Below, in pieces: positions 111 to 61,151 of a stretch of 64,000 nucleotides of DNA (its first letter is position 1; the number at the start of each line of letters is the position of its first letter). The DNA is taken from contig JASEGZ010000004.1 in NCBI GenBank assembly GCA_030018935.1, positions 918 through 64,917 of the forward strand, written 5' to 3'. Under the pieces are notes generated by a model that was not told the DNA's origin, searched no databases, and saw only the letters and a list, made by a program, of their open reading frames with translations. Both the position numbers and the translations under genes were made by a program. The stretch is from Syntrophales bacterium (GTDB lineage: Bacteria; Desulfobacterota; Syntrophia; Syntrophales; CG2-30-49-12).

Positions 111-144
111 CTTGACTTACGACTTACGACGGATGACTTATGAC
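111..144. repeat. heptamer-phased intergenic repeat (GACTTAC/GACTTAT word family)
   Basis: CTTGACTTACGACTTACGACGGATGACTTATGAC followed by T6A8. The same 7-nt words recur on either strand at 17213-17245, 43145-43191 and 46890-46931. Confidence 0.7.
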
Positions 145-165
145 TTTTTTAAAAAAAAGAGGACC

Positions 166-946: not shown

Positions 947-1678
947 GTGACAAAGGTAAAGATCTGCGGGATCACAAACCTGAAAGACGCCTTGCATGCG
1001 GCCGATTGCGGGGCTGACGCCCTCGGTTTCATTTACTATCCGAAGAGTCCCCGGTACGTGGCGCCGGAGGTCGCCAGGAAAATTATCGAAGAGCTTCCCC
1101 CTGGAATTACGAAGGTCGGCGTTTTTGTCAATCAAGATGCCGAAGAGATTAGGGAACTGGTGGAATTCTGCGGTCTTGACATGATCCAGCTTCACGGAGA
1201 TGAATCTCCCGCCTATTGCCGTCAATTTCCGGCGTCTGTCCTGATCAAGTCCCTTTCCCTCCGAGTGGCGCATGACCTTGTAAAGTTGAGGAACTACCCT
1301 GTAAAGACGATCCTGGTTGATGCCTATGACCCTGGACTCTACGGAGGAACGGGGAAAAAAGCGAACTGGGAGCTGGCCATAAAGGTCAAGGAGACACACC
1401 CCCTCATCCTCTCCGGTGGTTTAAACGTGGACAATATACGGCAGGCCATCGAGACAGTTTTGCCCCAGGCTGTTGACATTAACAGCGGCGTTGAAACTTC
1501 ACCGGGGAAAAAAGACCCCAAAATGGTCAGGAAAATCATCGAGATCGTACGACAGACAGATTTAGACAAAAAAGGTGACCTACCAGCAGATAAAAATACC
1601 GTAAGCGTTCAGCTATCAGCCTTCAGTTTTCAGCGAAAACAGAAAGATACCAGGGGAAGTTCACAACTTCCAGGATGA
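947..1678 (+). CDS. trpF: phosphoribosylanthranilate isomerase
   Basis: GTG start 2 nt after the trpC stop. VKICGIT...DALGFIYYPKSPRYV...QLHGDE...SGGLNVDNI pattern is typical of TrpF. The last ~38 codons run into repeat element 1601-1746, so the true C-terminus is uncertain. Confidence 0.88.
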   Translation: MTKVKICGITNLKDALHAADCGADALGFIYYPKSPRYVAPEVARKIIEELPPGITKVGVFVNQDAEEIRELVEFCGLDMIQLHGDESPAYCRQFPASVLIKSLSLRVAHDLVKLRNYPVKTILVDAYDPGLYGGTGKKANWELAIKVKETHPLILSGGLNVDNIRQAIETVLPQAVDINSGVETSPGKKDPKMVRKIIEIVRQTDLDKKGDLPADKNTVSVQLSAFSFQRKQKDTRGSSQLPG

Positions 1679-1746
1679 GTTTTCATACGTATGTTTTGTC
1701 TTGACTTGTTTTACTGGTTGCTGATAGCTGACAGCTGAGCGCTTAC
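1601..1746. repeat. inverted-repeat element (GTAAGCGTTCAGCTATCAGC arms)
   Basis: Left arm GTAAGCGTTCAGCTATCAGC (1601-1620) and right arm GCTGATAGCTGACAGCTGAGCGCTTAC (1720-1746) are near reverse complements. A second copy of the same arm pair is at 14007-14102. Confidence 0.75.
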
Positions 1747-1773
1747 TTATTAATTAACTTTGGGAGGTAAATC

Positions 1774-4480: not shown

Positions 4481-4585
4481 GGGCTTGCCTGCTTAATCCG
4501 TTTAGGTGTTTAGACCGAAGACTAAAGGGTCATAATAGCCTTCAGCCTTCAGTCTATCCACCTAAGTAGTTACGCTTTATTTTTG

Positions 4586-14006: not shown

Positions 14007-14102
14007 GTAAGCGTTCAGCTATCAGCTATCAGCAAGATAAAGAAAAGTAACGAGTTATCCATAAAACCTTTTTTTACTAAAAGCTGATTGCTGAACGCTT
14101 AT
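14007..14102. repeat. inverted-repeat element (second copy of the GTAAGCGTTCAGCTATCAGC family)
   Basis: GTAAGCGTTCAGCTATCAGCTATCAGC (14007-14033) pairs with GCTGATTGCTGAACGCTTAT (14083-14102). Lies between the response-regulator stop and the pepA start. Confidence 0.75.
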
Positions 14103-17191: not shown

Positions 17192-17212
17192 TACTGTTTC
17201 CTGTATCAACAA

Positions 17213-17245
17213 GTCGTAAGTCGTAAGTTGTAAGTCATAAGTTAG
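17213..17245. repeat. heptamer-phased repeat (GTCGTAA x5 variants)
   Basis: GTCGTAA GTCGTAA GTTGTAA GTCATAA GTTAG. This is the reverse complement of the word family at 111-144. Confidence 0.75.
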
Positions 17246-17317
17246 TTTCCCTTACTTACATAAAAATTGAATAGACTCTTTATCCATTATATCCTCGAAT
17301 TTCTCAATCTTACTCAT

Positions 17318-17346
17318 CACTCTCGACTCCAGACTCTCGACTCAAC
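17318..17346. repeat. heptamer-phased repeat (CGACTCC/AGACTCT words)
   Basis: CACTCTCGACTCCAGACTCTCGACTCAAC. Related words occur at 61124-61151. Confidence 0.6.
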
Positions 17347-29225: not shown

Positions 29226-29306
29226 GTGTGAAGTTTGAAGTGAGCTAAAGTGCCTAAAGTTACAGAAAAATCAAAAACTTTAAGCGCTTTAAACTTTAGG
29301 CGCTTT
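29226..29306. repeat. low-complexity hairpin repeat (AAGT/AACTTTAGGCGCTTT words)
   Basis: GTGAAGTTTGAAGTGAGCTAAAGTGCCTAAAGTT pairs with tandem AACTTTAAGCGCTTT / AACTTTAGGCGCTTT. Starts immediately after the acpS stop. Confidence 0.65.
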
Positions 29307-37211: not shown

Positions 37212-39662
37212 TTGGGAACGTTTGATTTCATTAAAGACAGAGAAAAAGAACAAAAGATATCGGTCATTCCCCTTTTGCCATTGAGGGATGTGGTTGTATT
37301 TCCCCATATGATCGTGCCTCTCTTTGTGGGAAGGGAAAAGTCCATTGCCACCCTCGAATCTGCTATGAAACAAGAGAAGGGCCTATTCCTGGCGGTACAG
37401 AGGGATGCGCAGAAGGACAATCCGACGGAAGATGATATCTACCGTGTGGGTACAATCGGGACTATAATTCAGCTTTTGAGGCTTCCCGACGGAACGGTTA
37501 AGGTTCTTGTGGAAGGAAAGAAACGGGGGGTCATTAAAGAATACCTACCCGACGAAGAGAACTTTTCCGTCAGAGTTCAAGAGATGGAAGACATTGATGA
37601 TCAGGATGCGGTAAAGACAGAAGCCTTAATGAGAGGCATAAGGGAGGTTTTTGAAACTTACGTAAAGCTCAGCAAGAAAATACCGGTAGAGATGGTTGGT
37701 GCCATGGCATCTATACAAAATCCTTCAAGGATGGCGGATGTTGTTGTATCCCATACCAATATCAAGCTCGAAGACAAGCAGAAAGTCTTAGAGATATGCA
37801 ATATCGCCGACAGGCTGGAAACAATCTACAGGTTAATCTTTGGAGAGGTGGAGATCCTGGAGGTTGAGGAAAAGATCAAGAAACGGGTCAAAAAGCAGAT
37901 GGAAAAGACCCAGAAGGACTACTACCTGAATGAACAGATGCGGGCCATCCAGAAAGAGATGGGTGAGAAGGATGATTTCAAGAATGAGATTGCAGAACTC
38001 GAAAAAAGGTTGAAGCAGAAAAAATTATCAGAAGAAGCCCATAAGAAAGTCAAGCAGGAAATTAAAAAATTGCAGATGATGGCCCCTATGTCGGCGGAGT
38101 CTACGGTAGTCAGAAATTATATAGACTGGTTATTGGATTTGCCATGGTCTGAAAAGACAGACAATAAATACACCCTAAAAGAATCAGAGGCGATCTTGGA
38201 AGAAGACCATTACGGTCTAAAGAAAGTAAAGGAGCGGATCCTCGAGTACCTTGCCGTACAGACTCTGGTGCAAAAAAATAAGGGATCTATCCTCTGTCTT
38301 GTCGGTCCCCCGGGTGTAGGTAAAACCTCTGTCGCCAAATCGGTTGCCCGGGCAACCAACAGAAAGTTTGTCAGAATGTCCTTGGGTGGCGTCAGAGACG
38401 AGGCCGAGATCAGGGGTCACAGAAGAACCTATATCGGCGCTTTACCGGGAAAGATCATTCAGTTATTGAAAAAAGCGGGTGCCAATAATCCGGTCTTTTG
38501 TCTGGATGAGGTTGATAAATTGAGTTCCGATTTCCGGGGAGATCCTTCCGCGGCCCTTCTCGAGGTACTTGATCCGGAACAGAACAATACCTTTAACGAT
38601 AATTACCTCGAAGTTGATTATGACCTTTCCGATGTCATGTTCATTACGACGGCCAATGTCTTGCAAACGATACCTCCTCCTCTCCAGGACAGGATGGAAG
38701 TGATTCGCATTGCAGGTTATACGGAACCGGAAAAGTTGAACATTGCCAGAAAGTTTCTCGTTGCCAAGGAGATGGAGGCCAATGGTCTTACGAAGGACAA
38801 CATCTTCTTCTCGGATGGCGCCTTGCTGGCTATTATCAGAAAATATACAAGGGAGGCAGGTGTCAGGAACCTCGAAAGAGAAATTGCCTCCATATGTAGA
38901 AAGATAGCGAGGGAGATCGTCACGAATGGTGACGGGGGACAGATTAAGATCACCTCCCGGGTTATTCAAAAATACCTGGGAGTACCACAATTCAGATACG
39001 GGGAAACGGAAGGAAAAGATGAAATCGGGCTGACTATTGGTCTGGCATGGACGGAAGTGGGTGGAGAACTCCTTACCATTGAGTCTTCACTCATGAGAGG
39101 AACAGGTAAGATGATATTGACCGGAAAATTAGGGGATGTAATGCAAGAATCCGCTCAGGCGGCTCTGACTTACGTCCGTGCGAGGGCAGAACAGTTCGGT
39201 TTGCCGGAGAATTTTTATAAGGAAACGGACATCCATGTGCACGTACCGGAGGGCGCCATACCGAAGGACGGGCCATCGGCAGGTATTGCCATGGCTACAT
39301 CCATAGCTTCTGCCTTTATAAAAAGAAAAGTTCGTGCGGATCTGGCCATGACCGGTGAAATTACCCTGAGAGGGAGGGTGTTACCCATAGGTGGTTTAAA
39401 GGAGAAACTTCTCGCCGCTCACCGGGGAAATATAAAGACAGTTATCATTCCCAAAGACAATGAAAAGGATCTGGCTGATGTTCCTGCCAATGTTTTAAAG
39501 GCATTGGAAATTCTCTTTGTTGACCATGTTGATGAGGTTTTGAAATGGGCATTCCTTCCCGAGGAAGAAACGAGAGAGAGCGAAACGTGTGAGGAGGAGA
39601 GATACATGCCGGTCCCCCCTGTTATCAGCACACCTCAGATTCCGACGAATGTCTATACCTAA
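37212..39662 (+). CDS. lon: ATP-dependent Lon protease
   Basis: LON N-domain ([12 protein letters not shown]), AAA+ GPPGVGKTS, and protease domain [11 protein letters not shown] with the catalytic Ser. TTG start, so the start is uncertain. Confidence 0.95.
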
Positions 39663-39696
39663 CCCGGACAAGCCGGAACCAAAAAGGTCAGAAAAA

Positions 39697-39808
39697 GTTC
39701 AAATGTCAAAGCTCAAAGTTCAAATGAATGTCAAATGACTCAATATCAAAAGATTTATCCCCTTTGTCATTTGAGCTTTGGGCTTCATTTGTCATTTGAG
39801 TTTTGAAC
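39697..39808. repeat. large heptamer-phased hairpin repeat (TCAAATG/TCAAAGC words), probable lon terminator
   Basis: Left arm GTTCAAATGTCAAAGCTCAAAGTTCAAATGAATGTCAAATGAC (39697-39739) and right arm GTCATTTGAGCTTTGGGCTTCATTTGTCATTTGAGTTTTGAAC (39766-39808) are imperfect reverse complements. Begins 35 nt after the lon stop. Confidence 0.75.
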
Positions 39809-39899
39809 TTAAAATTTTCTTGCCAATTTGCGCACAATTTCATTCATAAGAGACTAAAGTAAATACTTGAGGAGTCAGGAGCCAGAATCCAGAATAAAG

Positions 39900-39975
39900 G
39901 GGCGGGTAGCTCAGTCGGGAGAGCGCCACGTTTACACCGTGGATGTCACAGGTTCGAGTCCTGTTCCGCCCACCA
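39900..39975 (+). tRNA. tRNA-Val (anticodon TAC)
   Basis: Acceptor GGGCGGG/TCCGCCC, anticodon stem CCACG/CGTGG with loop TTTACAC, T-arm CAGGTTCGAGTCCTG, encoded CCA. Confidence 0.9.
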
Positions 39976-40067
39976 TGGAAATAAGAAGCCTTTCTTGTTA
40001 GAAAGGCGATTCATGGTTTCACTGATGGCAGTGATGAAAAAGGTTTTTCAAAAGGGATAGGTATTTC

Positions 40068-40144
40068 GGGGTCGTAGTTAAGATGGTTATAACGCCGGCC
40101 TGTCACGCCGGAGGACGTGGGTTCAAGTCCCATCGGCCCCGCCA
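40068..40144 (+). tRNA. tRNA-Asp (anticodon GTC)
   Basis: Acceptor GGGGTCG/CGGCCCC, anticodon stem CCGGC/GCCGG with loop CTGTCAC, T-arm GTGGGTTCAAGTCCCAT, encoded CCA. Confidence 0.9.
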
Positions 40145-43144: not shown

Positions 43145-43191
43145 GAGTCGTAAGTCATAAGACTGACGACTGACGACTGATGACTGACAAG
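43145..43191. repeat. heptamer-phased repeat (GTCGTAA / GACTGAC words)
   Basis: GAGTCGTAAGTCATAAGACTGACGACTGACGACTGATGACTGACAAG, between the CoA-transferase stop and the next gene's RBS. Confidence 0.7.
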
Positions 43192-46889: not shown

Positions 46890-46931
46890 ATGACCTATGA
46901 CTTACGACTTATGACCTATGACTTACGACTT
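46890..46931. repeat. tandem 21-nt (3 x 7) repeat ATGACCTATGACTTACGACTT x2
   Basis: Two exact 21-nt units built from 7-mers ATGACCT/ATGACTT/ACGACTT. Lies between the HMGCS-DUF35 stop codon, which it touches, and the thiolase start. Confidence 0.8.
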
Positions 46932-48324
46932 ATAATCCAATCGGACGGCATTTCCAATAGTAATTGTAAAAACCGGCCTCCTCATGAAATCGTCTATAGA
47001 TCATCTCCACAGGGGCCTCTATCTTTATCTCCTCAGGTTCGCAATCGGTCATCAGACAGTAGATACGGGCCCCGACTTCAGTTTCTACAATTGTTTGGAT
47101 GGTTGGCGGATTCGGTCCACCGGCCAGGTTATCGAGAGAATATGAAAAGACCTTTCCTTTCTTACCGGATAGGGGAAACTCCTCAAAGTTATCCTTGCTC
47201 TTACAGGAATAACATACCCGTTGAATGGGAAAAGTTATTAAGCCGCATACATTGCATTTACTTCCATGCAAAGCGGCAGACCATTTTCTTGTCCTCCACA
47301 TTACAGAGGCAGAGGGGAAGAGACGTATAAGCTCCTGAGGTGTCTGCACCAATCCACGAAAGGCGAGATATTTCTGGTAACTAAGCTCCTTACCCGCCTC
47401 GAGGGTCAATCCTGTTACTGAGGAAGCGTCTCTTTCCCCCATTTCAAGCAGAAGGGTATCGCTTCCACTGCCAAAGTTTGCCCAGAGGATCGTCTCGCCT
47501 GGTTTTGCCGCGGCAAGGGCAGAAGCGAGCATCATTAAAGCCTGGGCAGAGCCGGTATTCCCTGTCCTGTCCACCAGAGAATCCTGTATCTGTTCCGGTT
47601 TAAACCCCAATTTCTTTGCTACCCGCTGGTGGCTTGTTCCCTCGGGACTGTACATGACCAATTTATCTACTCTGTCGGCCTGCAGATTATTTCTCTCCAT
47701 GATGGCAGTTATGGAATGAGTTATATCCTTCTCATAACCCATCTGGACGATAAAACGATCCTCCCATGTCTTCACAAAATTGTCCTTATCCATTCTCCAT
47801 ACGTCGGTAATATCGTTCCAGGCCGAATAAGAATCTTTGATATGGCAGATTATATCTGAATCTCCAAGGAGGACCGCTGCCCCCCCATCCCCCATAATAC
47901 CCTCCAGAGGGGAACGGGGAAGGGTAGGGCGACAATCGGCAGTGACGACAAGAATATCTCCCAGGCCTGCTTTTACCGCATCTATAGCAGCAATCAAGGC
48001 ATTCGTACTTGACCTTGTTGAACCCCCAAAATCACCGGTACGAATGCCAGGGGAAAGATCGAGCACCCCTGCGCAGATAGCGGCACATTGTTTCTCCCAA
48101 TACGGAGCGGTAGTAGAGGCAAAGTAAAGCCCTTTTATCTTATCCCTGTTTTCCTGCTGCAAACACTTAAAACCGGCCTCGATCGCCATGGTGACGCTAT
48201 CTTCGTCAAAATTGGCCACCCGCCTCTCTCCTTTTCCCGCTTTAGCGCCCCAGGCCATGCCGATTGTCTTTCTGCTCAAACGGTAATAGGGGAGATGAAC
48301 TGCAATCTTTTTAATTCCAACCAT
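46930..48324 (-). CDS. HMG-CoA-synthase-like condensing enzyme fused to a C-terminal DUF35 zinc-ribbon/OB-fold domain
   Basis: The N-terminal ~345 aa has a thiolase-superfamily HMGCS-like pattern (KIAVHLPYYRL..., TADCRP, NTGSA). The C-terminal part has CNVCG...CYSC (zinc ribbon) followed by an OB-like segment. Confidence 0.72.
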   Translation of the reverse strand: MVGIKKIAVHLPYYRLSRKTIGMAWGAKAGKGERRVANFDEDSVTMAIEAGFKCLQQENRDKIKGLYFASTTAPYWEKQCAAICAGVLDLSPGIRTGDFGGSTRSSTNALIAAIDAVKAGLGDILVVTADCRPTLPRSPLEGIMGDGGAAVLLGDSDIICHIKDSYSAWNDITDVWRMDKDNFVKTWEDRFIVQMGYEKDITHSITAIMERNNLQADRVDKLVMYSPEGTSHQRVAKKLGFKPEQIQDSLVDRTGNTGSAQALMMLASALAAAKPGETILWANFGSGSDTLLLEMGERDASSVTGLTLEAGKELSYQKYLAFRGLVQTPQELIRLFPSASVMWRTRKWSAALHGSKCNVCGLITFPIQRVCYSCKSKDNFEEFPLSGKKGKVFSYSLDNLAGGPNPPTIQTIVETEVGARIYCLMTDCEPEEIKIEAPVEMIYRRFHEEAGFYNYYWKCRPIGL

Positions 48325-61123: not shown

Positions 61124-61151
61124 CACGACTCCTGACCCCCGACTCTCGACC
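61124..61151. repeat. heptamer-phased repeat (CGACTCC/TGACCCC/CGACTCT words)
   Basis: CACGACTCCTGACCCCCGACTCTCGACC, in the divergent intergenic region. Related to 17318-17346. Confidence 0.55.

Follow-up and report, generated by a model that had tools for sequence, protein, structure and literature searches.

Heptamer-armed intergenic hairpins are abundant and mobile in a groundwater Syntrophales bacterium and may derive from PF05635 cassettes

RESULTS AND DISCUSSION

We analyzed a 64,000-nucleotide (nt) stretch of DNA, here called the window, from the genome of a Syntrophales bacterium (GenBank assembly GCA_030018935.1, contig JASEGZ010000004.1, positions 918 to 64,917), and we focus on a hairpin-forming intergenic element at 39694-39810 whose arms consist of tandem 7-nt words. 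We conclude that such heptamer-armed hairpins are real, abundant, and mobile in this organism. With moderate confidence, we favor the view that they are gene-less, palindromic mobile elements, miniature forms derived from a selfish cassette in which inverted heptamer arrays enclose a PF05635 gene. [quoted passage not shown] Close relatives have gained and lost hairpins relative to one another. Gene-carrying copies with matching arms and termini exist, in this genome for the (AAGTCRT)n family (family A) and in metagenome contigs for the TCAAATG family, to which the focal element belongs. Arm length shifts in steps of 7 nt. Surviving copies are found mostly in the interval from a stop codon to the ribosome-binding site that follows; they point in the direction of transcription and frequently supply the stop codon.

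The window is part of contig C50 of a metagenome-assembled genome (MAG) of an uncultured groundwater bacterium (2.07 Mb in 90 contigs, 48% G+C, 96% complete). The relatives most often referred to below are a second species of the same genus (G001) and a member of the same family (G002).

The focal foldback and its insertion block

The focal element is a gene-less foldback of 117 nt on the plus strand, recognized by the complementarity of its arms, its fold, and its conserved termini. The arms (39694-39735 and 39777-39818) are 42 nt each and 71% complementary, and together they form an imperfect palindrome. The left arm is composed of TCAAATG, TCAAAGC, and TCAAAGT words, for which Tandem Repeats Finder (TRF) reports a period-7 array of 4.4 copies at 39694-39724, and the right arm is composed of their complements. 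The left terminus, AAGTTCAAATGTCAAAG, lies at 39695-39711, and the right terminus closes with TTTTGAACTT at 39810. As RNA, the spacer 39663-39830 folds at -49.2 kcal/mol (z = -5.39), a value equaled by 0 of 200 shuffles, and the element by itself gives z = -5.7. The stem is AT-rich and mismatched, and AAAATTTTC comes directly after it. A consensus scan found no intrinsic terminator (a short GC-rich stem with a T-run) at 39694-39810, terminator and promoter scans at the hairpin gave nothing above shuffle expectation, and most copies lie in operons ahead of a ribosome-binding site. The terminator role that an earlier note on this sequence had proposed is therefore unlikely. An Rfam search of the window recovered four tRNAs and matched no other family.

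The foldback sits in an inserted block of four parts, all on the plus strand, between lon and a tRNA gene. Comparison with the rest of the genome by blastn and alignment of relatives delimit a small module, CCTAACCCGGACAAGCCGGAACCAAA, with a CCGG-N5-CCGG mini-hairpin (39658-39683); the 117-nt foldback; an AT-rich tail (39811-39850); and a half-array of GGAGTCA, GGAGCCA, and GAATCCA words (39857-39895) that adjoins tRNA-Val(TAC) (39900-39975), the conserved right border of the insertion. The spacer between lon and tRNA-Val measures 244 nt here, compared to 45 nt in G001, whose lon is approximately 91% identical, and 55 nt in G002; the block is an insertion relative to the closest relatives. In a three-way alignment, the TAA stop (39660-39662) and the last codons of lon (37212-39662, encoding LonA protease with the Pfam domains Lon_C, LON_substr_bdg, and AAA) fall within the inserted block, and Lon ends in ...NVYT* here versus ...NVYTNG* in G002 and ...NGYSTDK* in G001. 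It is the small module that donates the lon stop; this module recurs 3' of the stop of another gene on C16 and, alone, on C77. The half-array beside the tRNA is one arm of another hairpin family, with matches on C34, C70, C57, C19, and C23 and a complete hairpin at C19:49003-49150.

The module, foldback, and tail together form a 193-nt repeat (39658-39850) with a second copy on C16 (C16:1185-1382; 89.6% identical by blastn), which is again located 3' of the TAA of an unrelated gene and in unchanged orientation. Neither G001 nor G002 contains a match to either copy. Contigs from four groundwater metagenome runs supplied further views of the locus. Those of two runs carry a joint from 39607 to 39899, an empty-site-like form, and one contig has a 7-nt insertion, TTTGAAC, at 39801 that is also present in the C16 copy. 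Another contig joins 39684 to 39811, skipping 126 nt (18 x 7), although this joint is weak, with only 27 nt on one side. Metagenome depth on the hairpin is in several-fold excess, and loose ends are many and varied. Just beyond the block, contigs from four runs join tRNA-Val directly to tRNA-Asp (40068-40144), skipping 78-91 nt of the spacer 39976-40067; thus, this spacer with its GCCTTTCT...AGAAAGGC hairpin varies among related populations too.

The focal family is widespread in metagenome contigs. The exact left-end 23-mer of the element occurs in 40 of them with unrelated flanks, which diverge right before AAGTTCAAATGTC. Complete copies are 98-130 nt long and are closed by AAGTTCAAATGTCAAAG/CTTTGACATTTGAACTT, with a variable interior; all fold (z from -2.4 to -6.8), and most are placed after a stop codon and ahead of the following ribosome-binding site. 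In two contigs, L266 and L246, the focal termini and words bracket PF05635 open reading frames (ORFs) that score 57 and 51 bits (Pfam cut-off, 33.8).

Period-7 arrays across the genome

The census bears out a genome-wide class of hairpin-forming intergenic elements, as the earlier note had surmised, with 7-nt periodicity and non-coding enrichment beyond chance. TRF returned 433 period-7 rows genome-wide versus 45 in a third-order Markov shuffle, an approximately 10-fold excess, with excesses also at periods 14, 21, and 28. A strict lag detector found 118 period-7 arrays, while the other periods from 4 to 15 yielded at most 8 each, except for period 14 (17 arrays, 2 x 7). The autocorrelation peak at lags 7, 14, and 21 is confined to non-coding DNA (0.2895 versus a baseline of about 0.26; coding, 0.2467), and arrays that seem to fall within ORFs are either chance repeats of two copies or located at the ends of ORFs that the crude ORF map over-extends. 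After overlapping TRF rows were merged, 421 arrays in 351 clusters remained. In 64 of the 351 clusters, two or more arrays lie within 100 nt of each other, typically as inverted partners that form long stems with one mismatch per unit; many other arrays are one-armed and very uniform.

In sampled DNA, the density of period-7 arrays is 57/Mb in this genome, 53/Mb in G001, 10/Mb in G002, and 0-20/Mb in four other genera, and none of these samples contained an array of period 5, 6, 8, or 9. Since the arrays are also found in G001 and in independent contigs from groundwater metagenomes, they are not an assembly artifact, an alternative that had been raised at the outset. Orthologous arrays differ between relatives by whole 7-nt units. 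Among distinct words, TCAG occurs in 32% versus 5% expected (29% without family-A-like words). We do not claim a universal nTCAnnn word core, as the words are related by descent and the arms in other genomes use unrelated words. The word spectrum of the G001 sample (L196-L215) is different, with TCAGCCT and GGGGTCA dominating, at a similar array density (53/Mb).

Heptanucleotide repeats have been known since 1990 (as short tandemly repeated repetitive [STRR] sequences), and since 2007 heptanucleotides have reportedly ranked first in over-representation among long simple repeats in bacteria. We know of no accepted origin or function for them. The 7-nt phasing had at first been taken as unusual; this does not hold, as heptamer arrays are over-represented in many bacteria and the sampled array-bearing relatives show period 7 only. 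Work cited in two later papers describes heptanucleotide arrays as an over-represented class of long simple-sequence repeats (LSSRs) in many bacteria and regards heptamers as a favored unit of slippage (Mrazek 2007, cited in PMC4679880 and PMC4692102). In Xanthomonas, 70-75 heptamer pairs are convergent and able to form stem-loops (PMC4692102). Like the GGGAATC pairs of Xanthomonas, the GGGGAYT arrays of Nostoc, the STRR sequences of heterocystous cyanobacteria, and Mrazek's LSSRs, the elements described here are intergenic tandems of 7-nt units, strongly over-represented relative to other unit sizes, whose length varies among close relatives. They differ from these repeats in comprising many word families (not one or three) and in having conserved termini, insert/empty-site evidence, and a gene-carrying form. 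The elements are thus a variant of the known class of heptamer repeats and convergent pairs. Our literature searches found no published link of heptamer repeats to PF05635, a link that appears to be unpublished.

If no mobile element were involved, the arrays would be STRR/LSSR repeats born in place by slippage, and the hairpins would have arisen through local inversion-duplication. Period 7 is indeed the sole long short-period class in each sampled relative, the unit-step length changes and the many uniform, one-armed arrays suit such an origin, and the heptamer excess elsewhere has been ascribed to polymerase slippage (PMC4679880 and PMC4692102). Birth in place fits poorly, however, with identical 17-23-nt termini in 40 unrelated contexts, with a 193-nt repeat at two loci that is 90% identical, with presence or absence of whole elements with target duplications, and with a PF05635 family enclosed by the same arms across phyla. 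We consider it improbable.

Family A and its gene-carrying copy

Family A, (AAGTCRT)n, accounts for 76 of the 118 strict arrays. On the sense strand, an upstream stop codon is followed by TAAAACATCAGTC(RTAAGTC)n, an AAAA center, and (GACGTAT/GACTGAT)m GACTGATGTTTTA, and in many copies a ribosome-binding site is found 2-8 nt beyond the GACTGATGTTTTA end. The unit has a TAA every 7 nt, so that three units close all three reading frames, and of 57 upstream ORFs, 22 have their stop within the array. The positions after stop codons and inside operons, noted earlier for the window, were confirmed.

A single intact PF05635 gene (120 amino acids, 123 bits) is present in this genome, on C84. It is flanked exactly by TAAAACATTAGTC(GTCRTAN)n and (GACTTAY)nGACTAATGTTTTT; the left arm reads TAAAACATTAGTCGTACGTC...ATAAGTC...GTCAAACACATTAG-ATG, and the right arm reads TAG-GACATACGACTTAC...GACTTATGACTAATGTTTTT. 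The gene is co-directional with its neighbors, and the TAA of the upstream gene overlaps the left terminus. Gene-less copies of family A fuse the two inner ends, GTCAAA being joined to AGAC, and the fused junction, GTCAAAAGAC, occurs 23 times versus 0 times for a mirror control, which corresponds to at least 23 gene-less copies. The orientation that prevails among them is that in which the full copy has its PF05635 gene on the sense strand. With AAAACATC ends, family A yielded no pairs of left and right termini within 450 nt at one mismatch or fewer. The genome is a clean and testable case, with one intact PF05635 cassette, dozens of gene-less inner-end fusions, and fresh insertions relative to a sister species. 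Fragments of the cassette are also found: at C84:14364-14680, 5' of the intact gene, the left arm and the first 38 nt of the PF05635 gene are repeated three times in tandem (90-nt units), C42:3885-3940 holds a further piece made up of the left arm and the gene start, and truncated remnants of PF05635 are located at C6:8565-8711 and C42:25515-25598.

In co-directional spacers, AAGTCRT is found 49 times in sense and 11 times in antisense orientation. We reject replication strand as the cause, because the bias tracks genes and not GC skew (36:7 for genes with the skew and 13:4 for genes against it). Such a bias could instead reflect selection by the host for cis-acting RNA or DNA, with the elements serving as intercistronic stabilizers, modulators of translational coupling, or binding arrays for a host protein, and with mobility being incidental. 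The stereotyped site between stop codon and ribosome-binding site is compatible with this idea, as is the proposal that the TAACTGA repeats upstream of starts in Beggiatoaceae are post-transcriptional regulatory sites (PMC4679880), given that the family-A right arm is (TGACTGA)n. Yet the orthologous spacers of the nearest relatives are without elements and the genes concerned are housekeeping genes, so that no conserved regulatory need is evident; words vary by locus, no Rfam family matches, and the bias would follow equally well if harmful insertions were selected against or if the copies descended from gene-carrying cassettes in sense orientation. Host selection for a regulatory function seems to us an improbable explanation of the hairpins.

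TAACTGA repeats are known from marine Beggiatoaceae, Cyanobacteria, and Bacteroidetes (MacGregor 2015; PMC4679880). Like some arrays here, they are forward heptamers just 5' of start codons, with a word related to that of the family-A right arm, and their distribution is patchy over phyla that also hold (AAGTCRT)n. They differ in that, in BOGUAY, 169 sets are direct and one is indirect; here, by comparison, one word family is present at 2-6 copies per set, and inverted pairs with conserved termini predominate.

PF05635 cassettes in other genomes

PF05635 is present in 14 of 41 Syntrophales genomes. Of nine PF05635 loci in Syntrophales of other genera, eight have the gene enclosed by inverted arms whose units are 7 nt (in some cases 8 nt) long and whose words are specific to the locus (GGGGTCA, CAGTRAA, GGAGTNA, TTAAGNA, CAGTTGT, and others), with the start of the next gene following the right arm. 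Among the 41 Syntrophales genomes, (AAGTCRT)n itself occurs in this genus only. Beyond the order, the exact pattern (AAGTCRT)3AAGTC was found in at least 120 stretches (L056-L175), compared to about 0.002 expected by chance, from Bacteroidota, Cyanobacteria, Gammaproteobacteria, Acidobacteriota, Patescibacteria, and others. These stretches often adjoin other heptamer arrays (CGTAAAT, CCCTATCA, CGGAATC, GAAGACA, and others) or form hairpins. The 120 windows around these arrays contain six PF05635 ORFs versus one in a 1.02-Mb control. In L145, L084, and L059, arrays of the AAGTCRT/GACTTAY type lie on both sides of a PF05635 ORF (in direct orientation in L059); arrays lie on both sides in L096 as well, and in L131 the ORF is followed directly by one such array. 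Arrays on both sides of PF05635 ORFs in other phyla imply that cassette and arms travel together across phyla.

The C84 protein is 45% and 43% identical to proteins with the same arms from other phyla and 25-39% identical to proteins with other arms from the same order, a comparison of 17 sequences that gives only a hint of co-inheritance of PF05635 protein and arms. The solved structure closest to this protein is 2GSC (XCC0516 of Xanthomonas campestris), and the closest solved PF05635 structures, 2GSC and 2RLD, have five chains per entry. The family resembles Avd, the accessory protein of diversity-generating retroelements (PMC10053308). If there is a dedicated partner protein of the kind that the earlier note envisaged, the candidate is the PF05635 four-helix-bundle protein and not a REP-associated tyrosine transposase (RAYT; REP, repetitive extragenic palindromic). 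A bolder version, which we regard as rather unlikely, would make the Avd-like and probably pentameric PF05635 protein the partner that has long been sought for the heptamer repeats of bacteria. It would recognize its own flanking 7-nt arrays, one unit per subunit, and promote their spread or expansion, and the heptamer-armed hairpins of many phyla would be non-autonomous descendants of a single ancient type of cassette that moves between phyla along with its arms.

A close parallel in architecture is provided by the 23S rRNA intervening sequences of Coxiella burnetii and Leptospira, in which a PF05635 ORF lies in the loop of a long terminal-inverted-repeat stem and which have been called selfish. 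Intervening sequences with such an S23p/PF05635 ORF have inverted repeats that form a 28-bp stem cut by RNase III (PMC4990558). In contrast, the elements studied here are not in helix 45 of 23S rRNA but between protein-coding genes (and before a tRNA), have arms of tandem heptamers, and for the most part no longer carry the ORF; cleavage by RNase III would be a parallel by analogy.

Proposed origin of the hairpins

[quoted passage not shown] The 7-nt unit would stem from slippage that the replication machinery, and possibly the cassette protein as well, favors; whole-unit length differences fit heptamers as the favored slippage unit and are compatible with a role of the protein. In mRNA, the long imperfect stems may act as processing or stabilizing hairpins of the RNase III type, like the stems of rRNA intervening sequences, and not as terminators, and selection would retain only those copies that spare operons. 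A check of listed public runs returned none of RNA for this organism. The genome encodes RNase III (rnc). If the stems are its substrates, operon mRNAs would be cut at many junctions.

Several points weigh against this proposal. To our knowledge, no nuclease, transposase, or DNA-binding activity has been demonstrated for PF05635 proteins. Searches of the assembly (96% complete) detected neither a reverse transcriptase, as an Avd-like RNA route would involve, nor an IS66 transposase. One intact PF05635 gene stands against hundreds of hairpins, and PF05635 is patchy among the Syntrophales. This genome lacks a gene-carrying copy of the TCAAATG family, and the link between the focal element and PF05635 rests on termini shared with metagenome contigs from unknown organisms. 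Neither a target duplication nor a conserved target was seen in 10 complete copies of the focal family, and 25 copies of family A with AAAACATC ends gave no convincing 8-mer target duplications; no conserved target was apparent around family A either. The pattern would be the same whether the gene was deleted in situ or gene-less copies transposed. Finally, the insertion at 17214-17341 (128 nt, absent from G001, strand not assigned) has a direct repeat, TCAACAAG, on both flanks. Its arms consist of GTCGTAA words on the left and CGACTCC/AGACTCT words on the right, GTC-phased, and its 7-8-bp duplication combined with family-A-like arms suggests that a DDE transposase can move such hairpins.

IS66-type elements

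The window also holds a second class. Elements with GTAAGCG ends are IS66-type MITEs, separate from the focal family although their subterminal arms are 7-nt phased as well. The TCAGCTA family belongs here: its copies on the plus strand at 1601-1746 (GTAAGCGTTCAGC...GCTGAGCGCTTAC, with TCAGCNN-phased arms) and 14007-14099 start with GTAAGCGTTCAGC, and the latter was inserted precisely, as comparison with G001 and G002 shows, and has an 8-bp target duplication (CCTTATTC/CCCTATTC). Genome-wide, we found 33 GTAAGCG...CGCTTAC pairs spanning 50-430 nt, at least 10 of them with 8-bp flanking repeats that match at 7-8 of 8 positions. IS66 inverted repeats open with GTAAGCG, and the insertion generates 8-bp direct repeats (PMC11946415 and PMC3281130). 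Like published IS66 MITEs, the TCAGCTA and AACTTTAGGCGCTTT families have GTAAGCG termini and 8-bp duplications, are 50-250 nt long and non-coding, and occur in tens of copies (PMC11946415). The relevant transposase, DDE_Tnp_IS66 (PF03050), was not found in the assembly, a weak negative, as insertion sequences often stay unassembled in MAGs.

It could be argued that the focal element is an ordinary MITE of this kind, derived from IS66 or another DDE element and moved in trans, with the phasing a by-product of slippage in the arms. The numerous GTAAGCG pairs and their duplications, the agreement with published IS66 ends and 8-bp repeats, one precise insertion relative to G001, the duplication at 17214-17341, and the sharply conserved 17-nt terminal inverted repeats of the focal family all lend this some weight. 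The ends of the focal element, AAGTTCAAATG.../...TTTGAACTT, nevertheless lack the GTAAGCG of IS66 termini, its 10 complete copies show no duplication, and family A is likewise without such ends or duplications. Moreover, none of the 40 metagenome loci has a transposase-sized insert between the termini, the sole larger cargo being the PF05635 gene, and the assembly contains no DDE_Tnp_IS66 gene that was detected. We therefore consider an IS66/DDE origin of the focal element unlikely.

The earlier note had spoken of a REP/MITE-like class; the REP/RAYT reading fails, as the REP of the RAYT gene described below is a separate system. Mobility itself is borne out by insert/empty-site differences, by 8-bp target duplications, and by conserved termini in many contexts.

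The RAYT gene and its REP

A search for RAYT genes, as had been advised, did find one (C52:5609-6600, 292 amino acids; NCBIfam NF047646 at 88.6 bits, cut-off 80), preceded by a sigma-70-like promoter (TTGACA-17-TATGAT), and a second Y1_Tnp gene is also present; what the search did not bring was a link to the heptamer elements. The RAYT gene is bracketed by GGGGTCAGGTCTTTT and AAAAGACCTGACCC, with its TGA stop within the right repeat, and 7-9-nt arrays (CAAAATC, CTAATTC) lie outside these repeats. Its inverted repeat, GGGGTCAGGTCT/AGACCTGACCCC, also flanks the orthologues in G001, G019, G037, and G015. As a dispersed REP, also in the paired form known as REPIN, the 12-mer GGGGTCAGGTCT reaches 46 copies in G023 and 38 in G015, often as inverted pairs about 49 nt apart. 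Here there is one exact copy genome-wide, compared to 0-1 for a reversed control. The first 7 nt of this REP equal the GGGGTCA unit of the G001 arrays.

Could the heptamer elements be REP/REPIN-type sequences mobilized by the RAYT (Y1/HUH) transposase? Like REPs and REPINs, they are short intergenic palindromes, often just 3' of stop codons; the RAYT gene and its flanking REP are present here and across the order, short-period arrays flank the RAYT gene itself, and a hairpin form without target duplication would suit single-strand HUH transposition. However, the REP of this RAYT, kept around the orthologues, is distinct from the heptamer hairpins, with their AAGTTCAAATG-type and AAAACATCAGTC-type ends; it is dispersed in other Syntrophales and not here, none of the heptamer families carries it, and the arrays flanking the RAYT gene are only generic short-period ones. 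RAYT homologues occur in 29 of 41 Syntrophales genomes, whereas (AAGTCRT)n is restricted to this genus. We therefore reject a link between RAYT and the heptamers and treat its REP as a separate system; mobilization by RAYT is already largely refuted and very improbable.

Further sites in the window

The remaining runs of heptamer words listed in the earlier note are all present. Apart from the focal arm, TRF places period-7 arrays at 114-146, 1604-1634, 1720-1738, 4537-4552, 14015-14033, 17211-17242, 17319-17343, 43161-43188, and 46899-46932, as well as the exact 21-nt repeat (2.1 copies) at 46890-46933 and a 16-nt repeat (two copies) at 29275-29306. The runs at 61124-61151 and 39866-39895 are weaker, falling under the TRF threshold though visible in the sequence. 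Insert/empty-site differences from G001 and G002 are seen at four loci of the window, so that elements differ at orthologous spacers among the three genomes.

Two of the arrays distort gene predictions, as had been suspected. The (GACTTAC)n array at 111-146 (plus strand) lies immediately 5' of the real trpC start: in the trpC ORF (73-945), the indole-3-glycerol phosphate synthase domain begins at residue 34, and hence the array sits in a spurious 5' extension. The trpF ORF (947-1678) reads, with no earlier stop, 25 codons into the MITE starting at 1601 before reaching a TGA, and its phosphoribosylanthranilate isomerase domain ends at residue 199 of 243; TrpF thus probably carries a MITE-encoded tail. 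This MITE (window 1570-1761) coincides with a break in synteny relative to both relatives. The sequences to its left (trpC-trpF) and right map apart, to C216 and C168 of G001 and to C16 and C6 of G002, on contigs that run past the break.

Three further plus-strand hairpins were compared with the relatives. A hairpin of AGCCTTC words, approximately 65 nt long (4512-4576), has more than 15 copies in G001, and the orthologous spacer in G002 is about 78 nt shorter. The hairpin of AACTTTAGGCGCTTT units between acpS and tsaE (29226-29306) is an insertion relative to the spacers of G001 (42 nt) and G002 (about 10 nt); more than 35 members of its family are present in G001, and at other sites the family ends in GCTGAACGCTTAC. 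A family-A hairpin of AAGTCRT and then GACTGAY words (43145-43191) extends from the stop codon of a coenzyme A transferase gene to the next ribosome-binding site. On the minus strand, the (GACTTAY)n array at 46890-46933, in a 5' leader, is also present in G001, where it is 14 nt (two units) shorter.

The consequences of these elements are real but modest, comprising broken MAG assemblies, a false ORF extension (trpC), a marked synteny break, and replaced ends of housekeeping genes (Lon minus 2-3 residues and TrpF probably plus a 25-residue tail). Contig C5 of G001 starts (G001:C5:1) exactly where the 43145-43191 array ends, and many array matches in G001 lie near contig ends; the arrays appear to fragment short-read MAG assemblies.

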